Shown piece by piece: positions 288 to 60,800 of a DNA stretch of 64,000 nucleotides (positions are counted from its first letter, which is position 1; each line of letters begins with the position of its first letter). Origin of the DNA: Candidatus Nanohalobium sp. (GTDB lineage: Archaea; Nanohalarchaeota; Nanosalinia; Nanosalinales; Nanosalinaceae); the NCBI GenBank assembly GCA_042217555.1, contig JBDGSL010000033.1:865-64864 (forward strand), given 5' to 3'. Under the pieces are notes generated by a model. It saw only the letters and a program-made list of their open reading frames with translations. It did no database searches and was not told the origin of the DNA. Both the position numbers and the translations under genes were made by a program.

Positions 288-1223
288 TTGTCTGCTCGAA
301 TAGACATTACAACCCTTCGGGGTTCACCAGGGATTGTGGGCTTTCGAACCCATCATCCCACACTCGGAAAGGAGCTTAACGGTTTCACTGATAGAGACGA
401 CGAGAACTTCTTCGCAGAAAAGTTCAACAAGGAACTGGAGAAGAATATTACTGAAGCCTGGTTTCAGAACCCTGATCTAGGCGTTAAAGGAAAGGCAGAC
501 CTAGTAGTTTCGGAGAACACAATTGTTGATTACAAGAGCGGTGGCAGGAAAACCGCATCAAGCCTAGTCAGAAAATCCAACTTGGAGTTGCTGGATAGAA
601 AGCCGAACTTCCAGGCAATGCTTTACCTAGCGCAGCTCCGAGCCGCAAACCCTGGCGAAAAATTGGAGTTCACGTTCTTCCACTTCCTGGACAATCTTGA
701 CGATGAGATGTCAGGAGGCGGAGAACTAGACGACAACATCGTAACGATCTCATACTTCCCAAGCCGTTTCAACGAGGCTTTGCCTCATGAAGATGTTCGG
801 GATTATCTTTACAGCTCCAAGAAACGCAGGAGGCTGATAGATAATCTAGGTGAAAAAGGCTATAGTTCAGTCATGGAAAACCTTCAGATAGAGCCGGAAG
901 CGCAGTACGACAAAGACCTTGCACTAGAGAAACATCTCGAAGAGTTCATCGAGCTCTGTCGAAGCCACGTAGTTATAGGTAGAGGAGATGGAAAGCTGAC
1001 AGAAAACCAGCTGGAAAAAGGATGCAAATCAGTACTCAAACAACTAGTCTACTTCAGAAAAGAGAACTACTTCAAGGAAGACCTCGACGCATTCCAAGAA
1101 TTCCTTCAAGAAGAACTAGATAACCTGTCGCAGTTCCAACTGGACGGCTTCCCGCTCGAAAACTCGCTTGAAATCGAGATCGATCACTCAGATCTAGACC
1201 ACGGAGACATGATACCTAGATGA
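288..1223 (+). pseudogene. 5'-truncated AddB-like PD-(D/E)XK nuclease (C-terminal ~290 aa only)
   Basis: GVKGKADLVV..IVDYKSG..PNFQAMLY..FTFFHFL aligns with the C-terminus of the 853-aa ORF at 28752-31313; similarity starts near nt 370 and the N-terminal ~560 aa are absent. Confidence 0.7.
311..359. repeat. two adjacent hairpins at the truncation point of the AddB-like fragment
   Basis: AACCC-TTCG-GGGTT (311-324) and GGGAT..TGGG-CTTTCGAA-CCCA..ATCCC (330-359). Confidence 0.6.
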
Positions 1224-1938: not shown

Positions 1939-2317
1939 AGAATCACTTACAGAAGCAGAATCCTATCTGACAGCAGCAAACAAACAGTACGAAAAAGCGT
2001 TAGAAAGCGGAACTTGGAATCCCGTAATCGTCAGCTGCATAATGGCGATGATCAAGTCAATTGATGCATTGATGCTTGAATATAGAAACGACACTAATCA
2101 AGATCACTCCAAAACAGCAAACGAACTTCAAAGACTATACGAAGACGGCCTAATATCAGACAGCTTCAAATCCAACATCGACTCAGTAAGGAAATGGGTA
2201 GTAGACGAGAAAACCGACATACAGTACAGAAACAAATCCGTCTCCCAGACAGAAGCCGACAGAGCCATAAAATCAGCAGAAAGACTTCTCAAAAAGACCA
2301 GAAAAGAATTAGAATGA
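1913..2317 (+). CDS. HEPN-domain protein (toxin partner of MNT)
   Basis: 134-aa helical protein overlapping the MNT gene; EAESYL..A, DH, QYR and AIKSAERLL pattern typical of short archaeal HEPNs. Confidence 0.7.
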   Translation: MKNLSSRIEESLTEAESYLTAANKQYEKALESGTWNPVIVSCIMAMIKSIDALMLEYRNDTNQDHSKTANELQRLYEDGLISDSFKSNIDSVRKWVVDEKTDIQYRNKSVSQTEADRAIKSAERLLKKTRKELE

Positions 2318-5103
2318 CAGAATTTTCTCCCAATGATGAACAACTGGAACTGATCGAAAGCATCGACGGAATCTACAAGGTGGATGCAGGAGCAGGAACA
2401 GGCAAGACCTTCACGATAACAAGAAGATACGCTCACATACTGGAACAGGCAGACGTTGAGCCAGAAGATATTCTGCTTCTAACATTTACCAATAATGCTG
2501 CGGAGGAGATGAAGGAGCGGATCATCAACCACTGCAGCTACGACATGAAAAACCTGCGTGGCGAAGATCAGAATCTTCTTGGAGCAGACACCTACCGGAG
2601 TCTGCGTGAAGCACCAATATCTACATTCCACAGCTTGGCCAAAAAAATAATTACGGAAAACGGATTTGAAGCGCCAATATACCTAGGGATCGACGACCAC
2701 GTAACAAGCTCAACAAGACTAATTGAAAACGAAGTCCTGGAAAAACAGGAGTTCCGAAAGTTCATAAACAACTTCATAGAGGAAAACCCACAGTACAACA
2801 ACCTCTACAGAATTCTCTACGACTACAGCGAACTTCTCAGCCTGATTAAATCTCTCGCAGCAAAAGGTATAGTTCCAACTGAGGAAGGCTGGTACCGGAA
2901 CTCAGAAAGATACCTGGATGGAGACTTCGAAGAGTTCCAGGAACTTTTTGAGGAGATGAACGAACCAGGACAAGGATCTAGAGGCCCTACACAATCGGAT
3001 TTCCTGAAGAAAGCCGGAGGAATTTTCAGGAATAAGTGTCTGCCAGGGGACGCACCAGGTTATGGAGATGTAAAGGCTTCAAAACAGATTAAACCGGAGT
3101 ACGGCGAGAAGGCTTTCCAAGAGAATCGGGAAGAGCTGAAGCAGTTCATACATGACATCTACTTCGAATACCTCGAGTACTGTCTCTCCCACAACTATCT
3201 GAACTTCAACTTCCTACTAGTGTTTGCCTATGCTCTACTCTGTGAAGACGACGAACTACGTGAAGAACTCAGCTTCAAGTACTCGATGATCGACGAGTTC
3301 CAGGACACTAATGAAATTCAGTTCAAGGTTGCAATGCTTCTATCAGAAGGTAATATGGCGGTAGTCGGTGACTGGAAACAATCTATTTACAGCTTCCAAT
3401 ACGCCAATGTCGACAATATACGAGAGTTCAAAGAAAGGCTTCAAAAGTACAAAGAGGAGCTCAACCAGGATCAGAACAGGATAAGCTATGCTGTAGACGA
3501 TGCGGAAAGAATAGACTTGAAGCAGAACTACAGGTCTACACAGGAAATACTTGGCTTCTCTGAAGATAGCTTAACACTGCCTGGAAAAGACGGCGAAGAC
3601 GTAGAGGAGAAAGATATTGTTTCTCTAGAAACCAATAAGGAAGGACACAATACCTCGATAAGTAAGCTGAAGTCGGAAAATGAGTTAGAAGCAATACTTC
3701 ACAAGATTCAAGAAGTAGTCGAAAATCTGAATTATAGCTTGGAGGAAGAAGATCGGCCGCCCAGGTACGAGGATATTGCTATTTTAACCCGTACCAGGAA
3801 CTTTGGTCTGGAACTACAGGAAAAGGCCGAGGAGTACGGTATTCCGATTGCATATGAAGGTGGAGTAGAACTCTTCAAGACGAGGCCGGCTATTCTGCTT
3901 CTGGCGTGGCTCCGAGTACTCAACTACAGAAACTCAAGCAAAGGTTGGGCGGTAATACTAGAAGAGGCAGACTACAACTTGGCAGAAGTCGAACACATAC
4001 TCGAAAAAGGCGAGTACCCGGACGAGATGCTAGAGTTCAGATCAAAGCTTGAACAATTAGACGATGTATCAGCTATAGCCAGAAAAGTATTCTCCAGATA
4101 CGGAATCGAAAACGGTTTCTCCGACAAGGTTACACAGGTCCTTCAAGACACGTTTGATTCCAGTTACAAGAACCGGGGGGACCTGATCAGGTTCATAGAA
4201 GAAAGCATTGAAGAAGGAGAAACCTACGAAGTAGACGACTCCAAACCAGAAGCAGTAACAGTACAGACCATCCACTCAGCCAAAGGACTGGAATACCCAA
4301 TAGTATTTGTCTCAGACATAAACCAGAGACACTTCCCTTCCAACCAAGGAAGTAACTCAAGAATCATCTACGAAGATCCGGTAGGGCTGAGACAGAAGAA
4401 GATTTACTCTGAGGAAAACAGTTATCTCTATGATAACTGGAAAGCCAGTCTGGTTTCAAAGGTACTTACCGGAGACTACGATGAAGAGCGCCGACTCATG
4501 TATGTGGCGATGACAAGAGCTGAACAACATCTCTTCTTCACAGCAGAAACCGATAACGAAAGCCTATTCTTCGAACATCTAAATCTAGAGGCGGAGGAAA
4601 TAAGTCCTGAACTAGAAAAGACAGAATTTCACAGTGAGAAGGGAAAAAAGCTAGAGTTAGATAAACCAGAGGATAAAGCTCCGGTGAAGCGTTCAGTGCA
4701 CGCAGTAATGGAACTAGATGAAACTGCCAGAGGCAGAGGACCAGAATTCGGAACCAAAGTGCATGAGTTTGCAGAGAAGTATGCTAAAGGAGAAAAAGTC
4801 GAGCCAAGCAATGAAGACGAGGAAAACGTTGCCGAATACATCGACTCCTTGGAAGGAGACTTACGCCCTGAGATCCCGATCAAAGTTCCGACCGAAGAAG
4901 ACGGCAGAAAGGTAGTCTATCACGGAGTCATCGATCTTCTGCATATCACAGATAACGAAGTAGAGATAATCGACTGGAAGACAGACTTGTCAAAAGTAAA
5001 CCATGATGAATATGAGAAGCAGCTTGAAATATATGAAGAAGGAATTAAGAAGGTATTTGATCAGGAAGTTCAGAAAGAGATATTATATACAGAAGATCTT
5101 TAG
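2314..5103 (+). CDS. UvrD/AddA-like SF1 helicase with C-terminal PD-(D/E)XK nuclease (island copy)
   Basis: AGAGTGKT, DEFQD, VGDWKQSIY, NYRS, TIHSAKGLEYP, EERRLMYVAMTRA; C-terminal GTKVHE..GVIDLL..IDWKT. Probable start ATG 2314 overlaps the HEPN stop (ATGA). Confidence 0.9.
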   Translation: MTEFSPNDEQLELIESIDGIYKVDAGAGTGKTFTITRRYAHILEQADVEPEDILLLTFTNNAAEEMKERIINHCSYDMKNLRGEDQNLLGADTYRSLREAPISTFHSLAKKIITENGFEAPIYLGIDDHVTSSTRLIENEVLEKQEFRKFINNFIEENPQYNNLYRILYDYSELLSLIKSLAAKGIVPTEEGWYRNSERYLDGDFEEFQELFEEMNEPGQGSRGPTQSDFLKKAGGIFRNKCLPGDAPGYGDVKASKQIKPEYGEKAFQENREELKQFIHDIYFEYLEYCLSHNYLNFNFLLVFAYALLCEDDELREELSFKYSMIDEFQDTNEIQFKVAMLLSEGNMAVVGDWKQSIYSFQYANVDNIREFKERLQKYKEELNQDQNRISYAVDDAERIDLKQNYRSTQEILGFSEDSLTLPGKDGEDVEEKDIVSLETNKEGHNTSISKLKSENELEAILHKIQEVVENLNYSLEEEDRPPRYEDIAILTRTRNFGLELQEKAEEYGIPIAYEGGVELFKTRPAILLLAWLRVLNYRNSSKGWAVILEEADYNLAEVEHILEKGEYPDEMLEFRSKLEQLDDVSAIARKVFSRYGIENGFSDKVTQVLQDTFDSSYKNRGDLIRFIEESIEEGETYEVDDSKPEAVTVQTIHSAKGLEYPIVFVSDINQRHFPSNQGSNSRIIYEDPVGLRQKKIYSEENSYLYDNWKASLVSKVLTGDYDEERRLMYVAMTRAEQHLFFTAETDNESLFFEHLNLEAEEISPELEKTEFHSEKGKKLELDKPEDKAPVKRSVHAVMELDETARGRGPEFGTKVHEFAEKYAKGEKVEPSNEDEENVAEYIDSLEGDLRPEIPIKVPTEEDGRKVVYHGVIDLLHITDNEVEIIDWKTDLSKVNHDEYEKQLEIYEEGIKKVFDQEVQKEILYTEDL
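2554..2608. repeat. 48-bp in-frame double-hairpin insertion flanked by a 7-bp direct repeat
   Basis: CTGCGTG at 2554-2560 and 2602-2608; internal GAAGAT-CAGA-ATCTTC and GCAGAC-N10-GTCTGC; absent from the paralog at 31377. Confidence 0.75.
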
Positions 5104-31313: not shown

Positions 31314-31376
31314 AACAACAAAATCTGATTAAACCCCTGCAAGCAACATTGTATAGTGAGCGGCGTGGTGATAGGT

Positions 31377-33644
31377 ATGGAGCCTAATCCACAGCAGAAG
31401 AACCTTATCGAGAGCACTGAAGGCGTTTATCTTGTTGATGCAGGTGCAGGGACGGGAAAGACCTTCAGTATCACTAGAAGATACGTGAACATACTGGAAG
31501 ATGCTGAACCGGAGGATATATTCCTGGCAACCTTCACAAGGAACGCAGCCGACGAGATGAAAGACAGGATAAGCCAGAGATCAAGTTATGACGCGGTTGA
31601 GATATTTGACGCTCCTATATCCACTTTCCACAGTCACTGCCAGAAAATCCTTGAAAGGCACGGCCATGAAGCACCTCAGATGCTGGGCATAGAACAGCAC
31701 CTGACAGAGGACGTGCAGGTTCTTGAAAGCCAGATAAGGGAGAGACAGTACTTCCAGAGCTTCATAGAGGAGTTCAGAGAGGCCTACCCCGAGTACCGGA
31801 ACTTTTTCAGGATCACACGCGATGAGTCCAACCTCCTGGAACTAGTGAAGTCGCTCGCAGCCAAAGGCATCATACCGGAGGAAGAAGGCTGGTTCGGTAA
31901 GACAGAACAGTACCTTGACGGAGACTTTGAAAGCTTTCAGAAACTTTTCAGGGAGAAAAACACTCCGGAGGAGAGAAACGGCGGGAAGAGACAGAGCGAG
32001 TTAAGGAAGAGGCTTTACAGCTACAAATGGAAGAACTTCACGCCGGAAGCTCCTGAAATAGAAGAAGTCAGAGGAGGTTACGGCACCAAACAGGTCAGAA
32101 AGGACTTCGCCAGGAAAGCGTTTGAGGAAGACACCGAAGAACTTAAAAAGTTCGTCCACACACTTTACAGAGACTACCTGGAGTACTCACTTGCCCACAA
32201 CTACCTTAACTTCGGTTTTCTTATGATACTGGCCTACATCATCCTGTACAGGAAGCCAGAGGCAAGAGACCGGGAAAAGTTTGACTACGTGATGATAGAC
32301 GAGTTCCAAGACACCAACGAGATACAGTTCAAACTGGCGTTGCTTCTATCCGGAGAGAAAAACCTTTGCGTTGTAGGAGACTGGAAACAGAGCATCTACA
32401 GCTTCCAGTATGCAGCAGTGGAGAACATACAGGACTTCAGGGAACGTCTTGACAGTTACAGCCGTGAACTCAATCAGGACAGGGAGAGAACTCCTTTCCC
32501 ATGCCAGGAAGTAGAGGAAATAAGATTGAAGGAAAACTACCGCTCCACACAGAAAATACTGGATACTGCAGAAAAAGCATTGAAGCTTCCGGCCTACGAC
32601 GGTGAAAACGTTGAAACACCTTCAGTACCTTCTCTTGAAGCCCAGGTGGAGGCAGATACTGAGGTTGGCAGGGTAGAGGCCGAGAATGAGAAAGAGGCAG
32701 TACTGGCCAGGATACAGAAACTGGTGGACAGTAAAAACCTTGGCTACGGTGATATAGCAGTTCTGGCAAGGACCCGGGGCTTTGGACTGGAACTGCAGGA
32801 TAAAGCACGTCAGTACGGTGTTCCTGCTGCTTACGAGGGAGGTGTAGAGCTTTTCAAGACCAACCCGTCGATACTGCTTCTGGCATGGCTGCGCATACTG
32901 CAGGACCGTCACTCATCGAAGGGATGGTCCGTAGTACTTGAAAAAGCCGGTTACAAGGTTTACGAGGCCGAAGAGATACTGGAGAAACGTAGCTACCCGG
33001 AAGACATGCTGGAGTTCAGAGAAGTACTTGAAGACCTGGAAGCCGTGGAGGCTGTCGCCGAGAAAGTGTTTCAGAAGTACGGCTACGCCAACGGATTCAC
33101 AGAGAAACTGGTGGAGGTCCTGGGAAACACGTTTGCCTCCAGCTACATGAACCTGGGCCAGTTGATAGAGTTCATAGAGGAGAATATAGATGAAGGTGAG
33201 ATATACCAGGTGGATACGTCCACAGGGGAAGACGCTGTCAACATACAGACTATTCACTCGGCAAAAGGACTGGAGTACCCTGCGGTAATCATCTCGGATG
33301 TCAACCGGTCGAAGTTCCCCTCTACAAACAGCTTCTCACCGAACATAACTTACAGGGAGCCGATAGGGCTCAGGCAGAGAAAAATCTTCAGAAACCACGA
33401 CTACGCCTACAGCTTCGACAACTGGCAGACCGAGATAATGGAAAAATGTCTGTCAGGAGAGTACGACGAGGAAAGACGGCTTATGTATGTCGCAATGACA
33501 AGGGCCGAACAGTACCTGTACATCACAGCAGAGAAAGGTAACGCATCAACATTCTTCACAGAACTGGACATCCAGAAAAAGAACGGGGAAGAACCGGAGA
33601 AGAGAGAAGAAAAACAGGACGAAAGAAAGGTATTCCAGCTCTAG
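31377..33644 (+). CDS. UvrD/AddA-like helicase lacking the C-terminal nuclease domain
   Basis: All SF1 motifs present; ends about 45 aa after motif VI; paralog of 2314-5103. Confidence 0.9.
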   Translation: MEPNPQQKNLIESTEGVYLVDAGAGTGKTFSITRRYVNILEDAEPEDIFLATFTRNAADEMKDRISQRSSYDAVEIFDAPISTFHSHCQKILERHGHEAPQMLGIEQHLTEDVQVLESQIRERQYFQSFIEEFREAYPEYRNFFRITRDESNLLELVKSLAAKGIIPEEEGWFGKTEQYLDGDFESFQKLFREKNTPEERNGGKRQSELRKRLYSYKWKNFTPEAPEIEEVRGGYGTKQVRKDFARKAFEEDTEELKKFVHTLYRDYLEYSLAHNYLNFGFLMILAYIILYRKPEARDREKFDYVMIDEFQDTNEIQFKLALLLSGEKNLCVVGDWKQSIYSFQYAAVENIQDFRERLDSYSRELNQDRERTPFPCQEVEEIRLKENYRSTQKILDTAEKALKLPAYDGENVETPSVPSLEAQVEADTEVGRVEAENEKEAVLARIQKLVDSKNLGYGDIAVLARTRGFGLELQDKARQYGVPAAYEGGVELFKTNPSILLLAWLRILQDRHSSKGWSVVLEKAGYKVYEAEEILEKRSYPEDMLEFREVLEDLEAVEAVAEKVFQKYGYANGFTEKLVEVLGNTFASSYMNLGQLIEFIEENIDEGEIYQVDTSTGEDAVNIQTIHSAKGLEYPAVIISDVNRSKFPSTNSFSPNITYREPIGLRQRKIFRNHDYAYSFDNWQTEIMEKCLSGEYDEERRLMYVAMTRAEQYLYITAEKGNASTFFTELDIQKKNGEEPEKREEKQDERKVFQL

Positions 33645-36954: not shown

Positions 36955-38490
36955 ATGTCACAGGAACTTGGAATAACGGTAAAGAAGGACCGCGATCCTT
37001 CAGAGTGGTACACACAGGTAGTTAAAAAAGCAGAACTGGCGAAATACGCCGACGTCAAGGGCTGCATGATAATCAAACCGTACGGAATGAAACTCTGGGA
37101 ATCAATAAAAGAGAACTTCAACGAGAAAATAGAAAGTACCGGAGTTGAAAACGCATACTTCCCACTCTTCATCCGCGAAAGCCAGCTGGAGAAGGAAGAA
37201 GACATCGTAGAAGGATTCGACCCGGAAGTCGCATGGGTAACACACGGAGGAAGCGACGAACTCGAAGAAAAAATCGCAGTAAGGCCTACATCAGAAAGCG
37301 TTATCGCACCATACATGGCAGACGAAATAAGAAGTCACAGGGACCTGCCTTTCAGAGTGAACCAGTGGGCAAACGTCGTACGCTGGGAAGCAACAGATAC
37401 AAGGCCTTTCCTGAGGACGAGAGAGTTCCTCTGGCAGGAAGGACATACAGCACACGCATCCGAGGAAGAAGCAGATGAGGAAACAATGCTGAGACTGGAA
37501 CAGTACAGACAGGTAATCGAAGACCATCTCGCTATCCCTTCAATCCTGGGATACAAGCCGGAGCACGACAAGTTCCCCGGAGCAAAATACACTACAACGA
37601 TCGAAACCTTGATGCCGGACGGGAAAAGCATCCAGTCAGGGACCTCACACCAGCTAGGACAGCACTTTGCCGAGGCCTTCGACATAACCTTTGAGGATGA
37701 GAACAGCGATGAGCAAACAGCGTGGACCACTTCATGGGGCCTCTCCACGAGGACGATCGGTGCCTTGATCATGGCACACGGTGACGATGAAGGCCTTAGA
37801 TTGCCTCCTTCCATTGCTCCGGTACAAACGGTCGTCGTACCTATCTACCAGGAAGACAACCAGGAAGAAGTCATGGAGTACGCAGAAAAAGTAGCCGAAG
37901 AACTGAAGAACGCAGATTGCTCCTGTGAAGAATCTGCTTGCAGCAGCAGTTCGGAGAAATGCTGCGAAAAAGGCCTTCGCGTAGAACTGGACGACAGAGA
38001 TCACAGAACACCGGGATACAAGTTCAACGAATGGGAACTCAAAGGCGTCCCACTCAGAGTCGAAGTAGGACCTAACGAAGTAGAAGACGACGCAGTCACC
38101 ACAGTAAGAAGAGACAACGGCAAGAAAGAAATGGGCAAGGACAGAGAAGAATTCCTAGAAAACGCAGAACAGGTCCTCGACGACATCCAGGAATCAATGT
38201 ATCAGGAACTGGAAGAATACCAGCAGGAGAACATCAGAGAAGCAGACTCCAAAAACGAAATCCTCGCAACAATCGGCAAAAACCGCGGCTACGTAAAAAC
38301 CCGCTGGTGCGGAAAAGAAGAATGCGAAGAAGAGATCAAAGACGAAGTATCCGCAGAAATCGTCGTCCTACCATTCCAGGAAGACAGCAAACCAGCCACC
38401 ATCCAGGACGAAGAAGAACACATCGACGGCAACTGCGCAATCTGCGGCGAGGATGCGGAACGCTGGGCATACTTCGCCAAGAATTATTGA
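36955..38490 (+). CDS. proS: prolyl-tRNA synthetase (archaeal/eukaryotic type) with a 19-aa insertion
   Basis: RPTSE, FLRTREFLWQEGHT, QSGTSHQLG, TSWGLSTR, C-terminal Zn module. Confidence 0.97.
   Translation: MSQELGITVKKDRDPSEWYTQVVKKAELAKYADVKGCMIIKPYGMKLWESIKENFNEKIESTGVENAYFPLFIRESQLEKEEDIVEGFDPEVAWVTHGGSDELEEKIAVRPTSESVIAPYMADEIRSHRDLPFRVNQWANVVRWEATDTRPFLRTREFLWQEGHTAHASEEEADEETMLRLEQYRQVIEDHLAIPSILGYKPEHDKFPGAKYTTTIETLMPDGKSIQSGTSHQLGQHFAEAFDITFEDENSDEQTAWTTSWGLSTRTIGALIMAHGDDEGLRLPPSIAPVQTVVVPIYQEDNQEEVMEYAEKVAEELKNADCSCEESACSSSSEKCCEKGLRVELDDRDHRTPGYKFNEWELKGVPLRVEVGPNEVEDDAVTTVRRDNGKKEMGKDREEFLENAEQVLDDIQESMYQELEEYQQENIREADSKNEILATIGKNRGYVKTRWCGKEECEEEIKDEVSAEIVVLPFQEDSKPATIQDEEEHIDGNCAICGEDAERWAYFAKNY
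37909..37966. repeat. 57-bp in-frame double-hairpin insertion in proS
   Basis: GCAGATT-N12-AATCTGC and GCAGCA-N11-TGCTGC; ends CGCAG...CTGCG; encodes NADCSCEESACSSSSEKCC. Confidence 0.7.
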
Positions 38491-60482: not shown

Positions 60483-60800
60483 CGCCGGCGCCCGGATTAC
60501 TGAACGAACTGCCAGACGAAGCAGTTCACAGTTCTAAAAAAGAAACCTGAAAGCCATGACTTTTGCATGGCTTCTTGCGTGTGTTGAAGACCGGATGGTC
60601 TTCTGCTCAAGAAGATCAGTTGCCTGATCTTCGGGAACTCAGCGTCGAAGACTTCGTCGGAAGTCTTCTCGAAGCAGATCCGGAGATCTGCGGTAACGAG
60701 TTCGCCGGCGCCCGGATTTGAACCCGAAGCTCGCCGCACCGGGAGGTTCTCACATCAAATCCAAGCTTAGGCGTGAAACGCCGGCGCCCGGATTTGAACC
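60483..60800. repeat. three copies of the tRNA-Ser 3' end bracketing a six-hairpin cassette
   Basis: CGCCGGCGCCCGGATTTGAACC at 60779-60800 and 60703-60724; 16 bp of it at 60483-60498. Confidence 0.88.

Follow-up and report, generated by a model that had tools for sequence, protein, structure and literature searches.

A 48-bp in-frame insertion in an AddA-like gene of a nanohaloarchaeon is probably a copy of a dispersed two-hairpin mini-element

Introduction

Rickettsia provides the textbook case of an oddity, palindromic elements inserted in frame into genes, and terminal-only PATEs have been described from one haloarchaeon. The Rickettsia palindromic elements (RPEs) are bacterial dispersed repeats of about 100–150 bp, many of which lie in frame in unrelated housekeeping genes and are translated as fold-compatible surface segments, each family encoding a conserved peptide (PMC10969869). 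The terminal-only PATEs of Haloquadratum walsbyi are 52 bp long, derive from IS605-type elements, are thought to be mobilisable and are reported to make no target duplication (PMC3119063). Here we describe a 48-bp insertion in an AddA-like helicase-nuclease gene of Candidatus Nanohalobium sp., located in a 64,000-nt stretch of contig JBDGSL010000033.1 (assembly GCA_042217555.1, positions 865 to 64,864), which we call the window and to which all coordinates given without a contig name refer. The inserted segment probably represents a non-coding mini-element, about 45 nt in length, of which copies are dispersed through Nanohaloarchaea genomes.

Like RPEs, the family in question, built of two hairpins, recurs in frame in unrelated open reading frames (ORFs), namely those of AddA, threonyl-tRNA synthetase (ThrRS), a Hel308-like helicase and, probably, prolyl-tRNA synthetase (ProRS). 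Unlike RPEs, its units are archaeal (DPANN) and only about 45 nt long, their stems vary from copy to copy, most copies lie beside or inside tRNA genes, and those within ORFs are antisense to the orientation of the model that describes the family. With the terminal-only PATEs it shares a hypersaline archaeal host, a tiny gene-less body, two near-terminal palindromes, the lack of terminal inverted repeats, and a genome with IS200/IS605 genes in which the ends of insertion sequences (ISs) bear similar hairpins; it differs from them in the 7-bp repeat at the AddA copy, in its weak likeness to the IS ends (13.8–14.9 bits) and in its in-frame insertion into genes, a feature not described for PATEs. 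Like MITEs, the miniature transposable elements with inverted repeats, the units are non-autonomous, short and flanked by direct repeats, but they are far smaller than typical MITEs, their flanking repeats vary in length, and they have no terminal inverted repeats, the ends GCGAAGATC.. and ..CCGGAGT not being inverted copies of each other. In the literature, no description of such an element family in DPANN archaea was found. By analogy, the family appears to be an archaeal counterpart of the Rickettsia palindromic elements.

Results

The insertion and its empty site

On the plus strand, the site reads AAAAAC, CTGCGTG, GCGAAGATCAGAATCTTCTTGGAGCAGACACCTACCGGAGT, CTGCGTG and AAGCACC, with the 41 nt of GCGAAGATCAGAATCTTCTTGGAGCAGACACCTACCGGAGT enclosed by two identical heptamers. 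The insertion comprises 48 bp (2561–2608), is in frame and adds 16 amino acids. Specifically, the protein reads YDMKNLR-GEDQNLLGADTYRSLR-EAPISTFH, and the chromosomal paralogue encoded further along the window reads YDAVEIFDAPISTFH. The 16 residues GEDQNLLGADTYRSLR are missing from the paralogue and from all 120 homologues aligned, which range from 89% to 48% identity, and the closest of these homologues read YDMKNLREAPISTFH, the exact product expected after removal of the 48 bp. In the DNA of relatives, the empty site is AAAAAC-CTGCGTG-AAGC (L004 and L005) or carries CTACGTG in place of the heptamer (L002 and L003), with one heptamer copy. The 48-bp segment is a discrete insertion event with an identifiable empty site. 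An earlier sequence-only reading of the window had proposed just such a discrete in-frame insertion in AddA, and the single CTGCGTG of the relatives bears it out; the alignment to the closest AddA homologues gave the insert-free product predicted, and the 16-residue segment is conserved in none of the homologues, close or distant.

Three other origins of the segment were considered and rejected. Borrowing of the loop from another homologue is rejected on the basis of a search, restricted to this region, of 5.8 billion proteins, among which no further carrier turned up. An assembly artefact is rejected by Logan contigs of two read sets, of which that of SRR28304476 is identical to the locus over 1536 of 1536 nt, insert included, while that of SRR36249263 confirms a 54-bp allele from another genome (see below). 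Tandem duplication of neighbouring sequence is rejected as well, the insert having no significant similarity to the adjacent DNA.

The flanking direct repeat of 7 bp is present as the sequence-only reading described it, and its interpretation as a target-site-like duplication is supported with one caveat. The repeat may be partly microhomology instead of the product of a staggered cut, because four of its seven bases (GCAG on the minus strand) also form the outer arm of one of the hairpins of the insert, hairpin A. Just 3 of the 7 nt of the flanking repeat lie outside the modelled element.

The insertion belongs to a dispersed two-hairpin family

The insert consists of hairpin A, a TCCAAG linker and hairpin B, in an orientation antisense to the gene (Table 1). 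Hairpin A reads GCAGAC.CC-TACC-GG.GTCTGC on the plus strand (2584–2605), on which the first hairpin starts 2 nt after the first CTGCGTG repeat. The 55-nt unit folds better than shuffled sequences, with z values of −2.2 (plus strand) and −3.1 (minus strand). Because perfect 6-bp hairpins occur about once per 248 nt in this genome, the fold alone provides modest evidence only.

A covariance model, R2, was trained on seven further units of this kind from the genome, with the AddA insert excluded; its E-values are rough, owing to a shortened calibration. Searched against the whole genome, R2 finds the AddA insert on the minus strand with 41.2 bits (E ~1e-5, rank 7), above two of its own training members. 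On the 64-kb window with filters off, the insert is the top match (E 5e-7), and its plus strand reaches 20.5 bits; the 54-bp allele scores 38.9 bits, again on the minus strand. Across the class, 24 of 70 Nanohaloarchaea genomes have matches at E<=1e-3 and the other 46 have none, and such scores are therefore not background. Judged by a model trained without it, the AddA insert is a member of a dispersed two-hairpin family.

A census of units with the layout repeat, two hairpins, repeat recovered a unit at C12:131561, 69 nt upstream of tRNA-Leu(TAA), which has 19 of 21 bases (GTGTCTnnTCCAAGAAGATTC) in common with the minus strand of the insert at the same structural position. Another unit from this census, with a perfect 20-nt flanking duplication, lies where a PCNA-like ORF on contig C31 has its 3' end. 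In addition, a strict scan for hairpin, TCCAAG and hairpin returned five units with common flanks, as compared with two in a reversed-genome control.

About 28 unique copies of the family occur in the genome, with a common layout of about 45 nt in which a TCCAAG-like linker joins hairpin A to hairpin B and CG follows; the arms of hairpin B are AAGAT or AAAAT on one side and ATCTT or ATTTT on the other. In an alignment of the 28 copies, the stem columns pair in ~70–100% of copies with two to five pair types per column (for example, 18 A-T and 10 G-C in one column), and the linker T-C-C-A-A-G is conserved together with bases of the stem. Rfam contains no matching family, and neither Rfam nor any other match ties the units to RPE-1 to RPE-10.

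The family is spread through the genome, with a bias for tRNA genes and their introns. Of the 28 copies, 8 are found in a tRNA intron or at most 200 nt away from a tRNA gene, although tRNA neighbourhoods make up an estimated ~2% of the genome, and R2 matches units inside two tRNA introns. The sequence-only reading had likened the hairpins of the insert to those of a repeat array at tRNA-Ser. The array lies behind tRNA-Gly(GCC), as determined by aragorn with introns allowed, and its direct match to hairpin B is 17 of 20; since R2 finds a match in this array (22.4 bits), the likeness is real at the level of the family.

Intron-bearing tRNA genes are frequent in this genome. With introns allowed, aragorn finds 40 tRNA genes genome-wide, 33 of which have introns of 33–139 nt with recurring hairpin modules; the window contributes Leu(CAG) at 23697–23882, Arg(CCT) at 23927–24070 and Gly(GCC) at 25653–25784. 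Standard ARAGORN, which allows no introns, reports zero tRNAs in the window.

A second allele and a recombination mosaic

In a scan with exact words, the second hairpin turned up in one further genome, the metagenome-assembled genome (MAG) JBDGRC010000080 of a different genus. Its 54-bp insert occupies the same site between the same two heptamers. The two alleles agree fully in hairpin A, in the linker and in both repeats. Hairpin B differs and is still paired: both of its arms are altered together, six bases are added, and the reading frame is kept. Hairpin B was altered in one complex step and not by gradual drift.

Between the two carriers there are only 2 differences in the ~370 nt up to 2340, none over 2476–2560 (100% identity) and none over 2575–2609, with seven substitutions and a 6-nt indel concentrated in 2561–2574; from 2610 onwards their identity is ~86%. 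Upstream of the insert, their identity is 95–100% along most of the sequence, and the switch, seen in 2476–2610 against L006, falls within 2 nt of the right-hand repeat. Synonymous divergence between the carriers rises from 0.23 in the first 80 codons to 0.72 beyond, and the AddA-like gene is therefore a recombination mosaic with a breakpoint abutting the insert. In the whole-gene tree the two carriers are not sisters, yet joining them is not rejected (approximately unbiased test, p 0.40).

Copies in other genes

Further in-frame antisense copies exist in the ThrRS gene and in the gene of a Hel308-like helicase. The ThrRS copy (C3:11154–11202) has 48 nt, or 16 codons, is bounded by GAAGAT...GAAGAC and is missing in 26 of 30 relatives. 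The copy in the Hel308-like gene (C39:11506–11555) has 54 nt, or 18 codons; most relatives are without it, and one genome has a one-hairpin form of 27 nt. Antisense orientation with respect to the host gene was seen in all copies within ORFs.

Both copies are common to genomes of another genus (g13) and not to genomes of the same genus. The Hel308-like gene itself has 89% identity to g13 and 68% to the same genus, values that suggest either transfer or a mis-binned contig.

In the ProRS gene of the window, a weak R2 match coincides with the boundaries of a Cys-rich insertion and matches the linker region at 16 of 18 positions. The insertion is probably a diverged family copy. It is counted as no more than probable because the loop varies gradually among relatives: the Cys-rich loop (37909–37966) has 19 aa here, 12 aa in one relative and ~7 aa (GCxC) in several genera, and is absent from others.

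The PCNA-like ORF on contig C31 presents a related arrangement. At C31:11000–11082, the last 20 nt of the ORF (..LAPRIEEE stop) are duplicated around a 44-nt insert, of which the first arm, CTTCTTCG, is a mirror copy of the host codons CGAAGAAG. The second hairpin of this insert is the GAAAATC-TCC-GATTTTC of the family, and R2 gives the unit only 17.8 bits.

Position of the insert in the AddA-like protein

The AddA-like protein has a superfamily 1A (SF1A) UvrD-like helicase core and a C-terminal PD-(D/E)XK nuclease, the layout of AddA/RecB-type enzymes. Pfam matches are UvrD-helicase (1.7e-54), UvrD_C (3.6e-37) and PDDEXK_1 (2.7e-6), and the sequence contains the Walker A motif GAGTGKT and DEFQD. 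The AlphaFold model (mean predicted local distance difference test, pLDDT, 84) has Bacillus subtilis AddA (4CEH_A) as its best match among solved structures, with an E-value of 2e-39. The mechanically called ORF begins at 2194, upstream of the ATG chosen here (2314). The ratio of nonsynonymous to synonymous divergence (dN/dS) against relatives is 0.05–0.09, a value so low as to indicate strong purifying selection and hence a gene that is kept functional.

The inserted residues are 83–98 of 929 and lie between helicase motifs Ia (TFTNNAAEEM) and Ib (ISTFH). Residues 78–93 of the AlphaFold model have a pLDDT below 50, and a helix at 90–98 leads into the strand of motif Ib. Modelling of the loop position, a check proposed in the sequence-only reading, places the insert in a low-confidence surface loop between the two motifs, in which other homologues also vary in length by a few residues. 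The model suggests that the insert is tolerated as a flexible surface loop followed by a short helix; it survived because, together with the 7-bp repeat, it amounts to exactly 16 codons with no stop.

The defence island

The host genome is a Nanohaloarchaea MAG of 1.3 Mb in 88 contigs. The first 23.6 kb of the window form a low-GC island (GC 0.40 vs 0.48), which ends (window 1–23600) with a tyrosine integrase gene on the minus strand (22242–23585), beside the intron-bearing genes of tRNA-Leu(CAG) and tRNA-Arg(CCT). Its cargo comprises an AddB remnant, an MNT-HEPN pair, the AddA-like gene, a PIN protein, a winged helix-turn-helix protein, an Mrr-like nuclease, a PLD-SNF2 helicase, an Eco57I-type methylase and an EVE-McrB-like ATPase. 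Genomes of other genera share the AddA-like allele of the island, and those of the same genus do not. None of the viral contigs searched for the AddA-like helicase gene encodes the helicase.

In relatives, an AddB-like PDDEXK_1 gene of 891–912 aa precedes the AddA-like gene. Its counterpart in the window (288–1223; contig C27:1–1235) is cut down to the last ~283 residues and is preceded by unrelated sequence including a long ORF, and the other insert carrier keeps at least 635 residues. The MNT-HEPN pair (1297–2317) between AddB and AddA occurs solely in the two insert-bearing lineages. The genome also has two GIY-YIG genes, for which no tie to the hairpin units was found, a point not followed further.

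Table 1. Positions of the insertion and its parts, the AddA-like genes and other family copies in the window
Feature	Position	Strand	Remarks
AddA-like SF1 helicase-nuclease gene	2314..5103	+	929 aa; ATG at 2314 overlaps stop of upstream HEPN gene
Flanking direct repeat, copy 1 (CTGCGTG)	2554..2560	.	present once at the empty sites of relatives
Two-hairpin mini-element (hairpin A, TCCAAG linker, hairpin B, CG), antisense to gene	2561..2605	-	model R2, 41.2 bits
Hairpin B, plus strand GAAGAT-CAGA-ATCTTC	2563..2578	-	folds; replaced by GAAGCT-T-CCG-GAA-CGG-AGCTTC in the other MAG
Linker, minus strand TCCAAG, its G shared with hairpin B stem	2579..2583	-	most conserved part of the family (28-copy alignment)
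Hairpin A, minus strand GCAGAC-T-CC GGTA GG-T-GTCTGC	2584..2605	-	folds, model alignment; identical in 54-bp variant
Flanking direct repeat, copy 2 (CTGCGTG)	2602..2608	.	outer arm of hairpin A formed by its first four bases
Family copy within tRNA-Leu(CAG) intron	23757..23807	-	R2, 24.8 bits; tRNA mapped
Weak copy in repeat array behind tRNA-Gly(GCC), the comparison array of the sequence-only reading	26022..26069	+	R2, 22.4 bits; 17/20 vs hairpin B
Chromosomal AddA-like paralogue, no insertion	31356..33644	+	sequence comparison with insert-bearing gene
Possible diverged copy, Cys-rich in-frame ProRS insertion	37910..37965	- (antisense to gene)	R2, 14.8 bits, E 0.47 (window)
Family copy adjoining that at 60647..60693	60584..60632	-	R2, 27 bits
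Family copy, 86 nt from tRNA-Arg(TCT)	60647..60693	+	R2, 35.3 bits

Discussion

Our analysis favours an origin of the AddA insertion from the dispersed mini-element family, a copy of which would have entered the AddA-like gene in antisense orientation, within a defence island of low GC that bears an integrase. As to how the element moves, we infer two routes, to which we give roughly equal weight. The element may be mobilised in trans, as single-stranded DNA, by the Y1 transposase of an IS200/IS605 element of the genome (route a), in the manner proposed for the Haloquadratum PATEs, or it may be inserted by copy-choice or microhomology-mediated processes (route b). The genome has a single IS200/IS605 Y1 TnpA (C11:15286–15699) alongside at least five TnpB genes and two genes of reverse transcriptases (contigs C11:15286–16641, C1, C75, C12 and C38). 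A similar two-hairpin layout recurs in the left ends of its ISs, where hairpin A is followed by a linker whose last bases are AG and then by hairpin B (GAAATC..GATTTC) and CGA. At the three readable junctions, the flanking repeat overlaps or mirrors the outer arm of a terminal hairpin, as GCAG in AddA, GAAGAY in ThrRS and CGAAGAAG in the PCNA-like ORF on C31. Such an overlapping or mirroring repeat fits microhomology-guided copy-choice.

Several observations weigh against an origin from a mobile family. IS200/IS605 elements and PATEs make no target duplications and insert 3' of a target of 4–6 nt, and the AddA copy has a clean 7-bp repeat, which counts against route a in particular; the IS left ends score just 13.8–14.9 bits with R2; the flanking repeats vary in length (6, 7, ~10 and 20 nt); and empty sites in close relatives back only the AddA junction. 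R2 itself rests on only seven training sequences and has rough E-values. Furthermore, the search for the 41–48-bp core that the sequence-only reading had proposed yields relatives through the structure model R2 and no near-identical copy: the 41-bp core has no other copy at <=3 mismatches in its own genome, in the genome of the other carrier or in 70 genomes of the class, and its exact 21–24-mers are absent from metagenome, genome and viral collections, save for the orthologous site in one MAG. Assignment to the family accordingly depends on a model of structure and motif. R1, a second covariance model built from seven simple tRNA introns, gives no match on the insert (E<=10, filters off). Compared with pooled tRNA introns, the 48-bp variant is borderline, its score being reached by 2% of random 41-mers, and the 54-bp variant is not significant.

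These points have to be set against those that bear on the alternatives. The absence of close copies would be expected of a one-off repair scar, in which a break or a stalled fork was mended with snap-back or template-switch filler, leaving two palindromes and a microhomology repeat without any family behind them. The core is single-copy by identity, with no donor in either genome or in public collections; the arm of hairpin A overlaps the flanking repeat; and there is no similarity to adjacent sequence, that is, no tandem duplication. A scar is nevertheless unlikely, as R2 matches both variants with the conserved TCCAAG linker rightly placed and oriented, the C12:131561 unit has 19 of 21 bases identical at the same structural position, and the same kind of unit is inserted in the ThrRS and Hel308-like genes. 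We also doubt that the family is a functional structured RNA or DNA signal of tRNA genes, terminator-like or involved in processing, of which the AddA copy would be an accidental product of ectopic recombination. In four unrelated ORFs the copies are antisense, where such a signal would be senseless, presence among close genomes is patchy, and Rfam has no match; these facts outweigh for us the strong bias to tRNA flanks and introns, the T-rich tail GATTTTCGTTTTC that ends many copies, and the covariation of the stems.

Two further alternatives concern the fate or the age of the segment. The 48 nt might be skipped at the RNA level, either as an archaeal intron or by translational bypass, and the peptide GEDQNLLGADTYR would then be absent from the protein. 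An archaeal bulge-helix-bulge (BHB) intron requires a helix, a 3-nt bulge, a 4-bp helix, a 3-nt bulge and a helix across both junctions, and bypass, as in T4 gene 60 and the mitochondrial byps, involves take-off and landing codons that match, a stop following the take-off site and a gap whose length need not preserve the frame. The direct repeats do provide matched codons (CTG CGT G) at both borders, a hairpin starts 2 nt past the first repeat, and the introns in 33 of the 40 tRNA genes imply a busy splicing machinery. However, the 48-nt BHB candidates have an outer helix of 0–1 bp and an inner helix of 0–2 bp, no stop follows the take-off codon, both variants (48 and 54 nt) are in frame and stop-free, and the element is antisense to the mRNA; removal from the RNA is thus very improbable. 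Seven-base direct repeats also favour precise deletion, by which an ancestral segment could have been lost from other lineages through slippage between the CTGCGTG copies. With none of the 120 homologues having the segment, even at 48% identity, the paralogue and distant orders among them, and with a 5' block recently exchanged between the two carriers, we regard this history as next to impossible.

With an origin from the mini-element family preferred over these alternatives, the locus offers a clean pair of filled and empty sites with a readable junction. In addition, the two diverged alleles, in which hairpin B has been rewritten on both arms, provide direct evidence of a pairing rule at the DNA or RNA level within translated sequence. 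Three subjects that are usually treated apart come together in the family: loop insertions in proteins, arrays of repeats at tRNA genes, and tRNA introns that are modular and unusually long. On a wider and distinctly speculative view, which we hold to be possible but doubtful, the two-hairpin unit would seed and inflate the tRNA introns of this lineage, build the arrays behind tRNA genes and sometimes become fixed as protein loops, with the introns serving as a safe harbour and the junctions reporting a hairpin-templated insertion that would be new in archaea. For annotation, the AddA insertion carries a warning: where a defence or housekeeping protein of these tiny symbionts has a loop peculiar to its lineage, the loop can be selfish DNA and not an adaptation.

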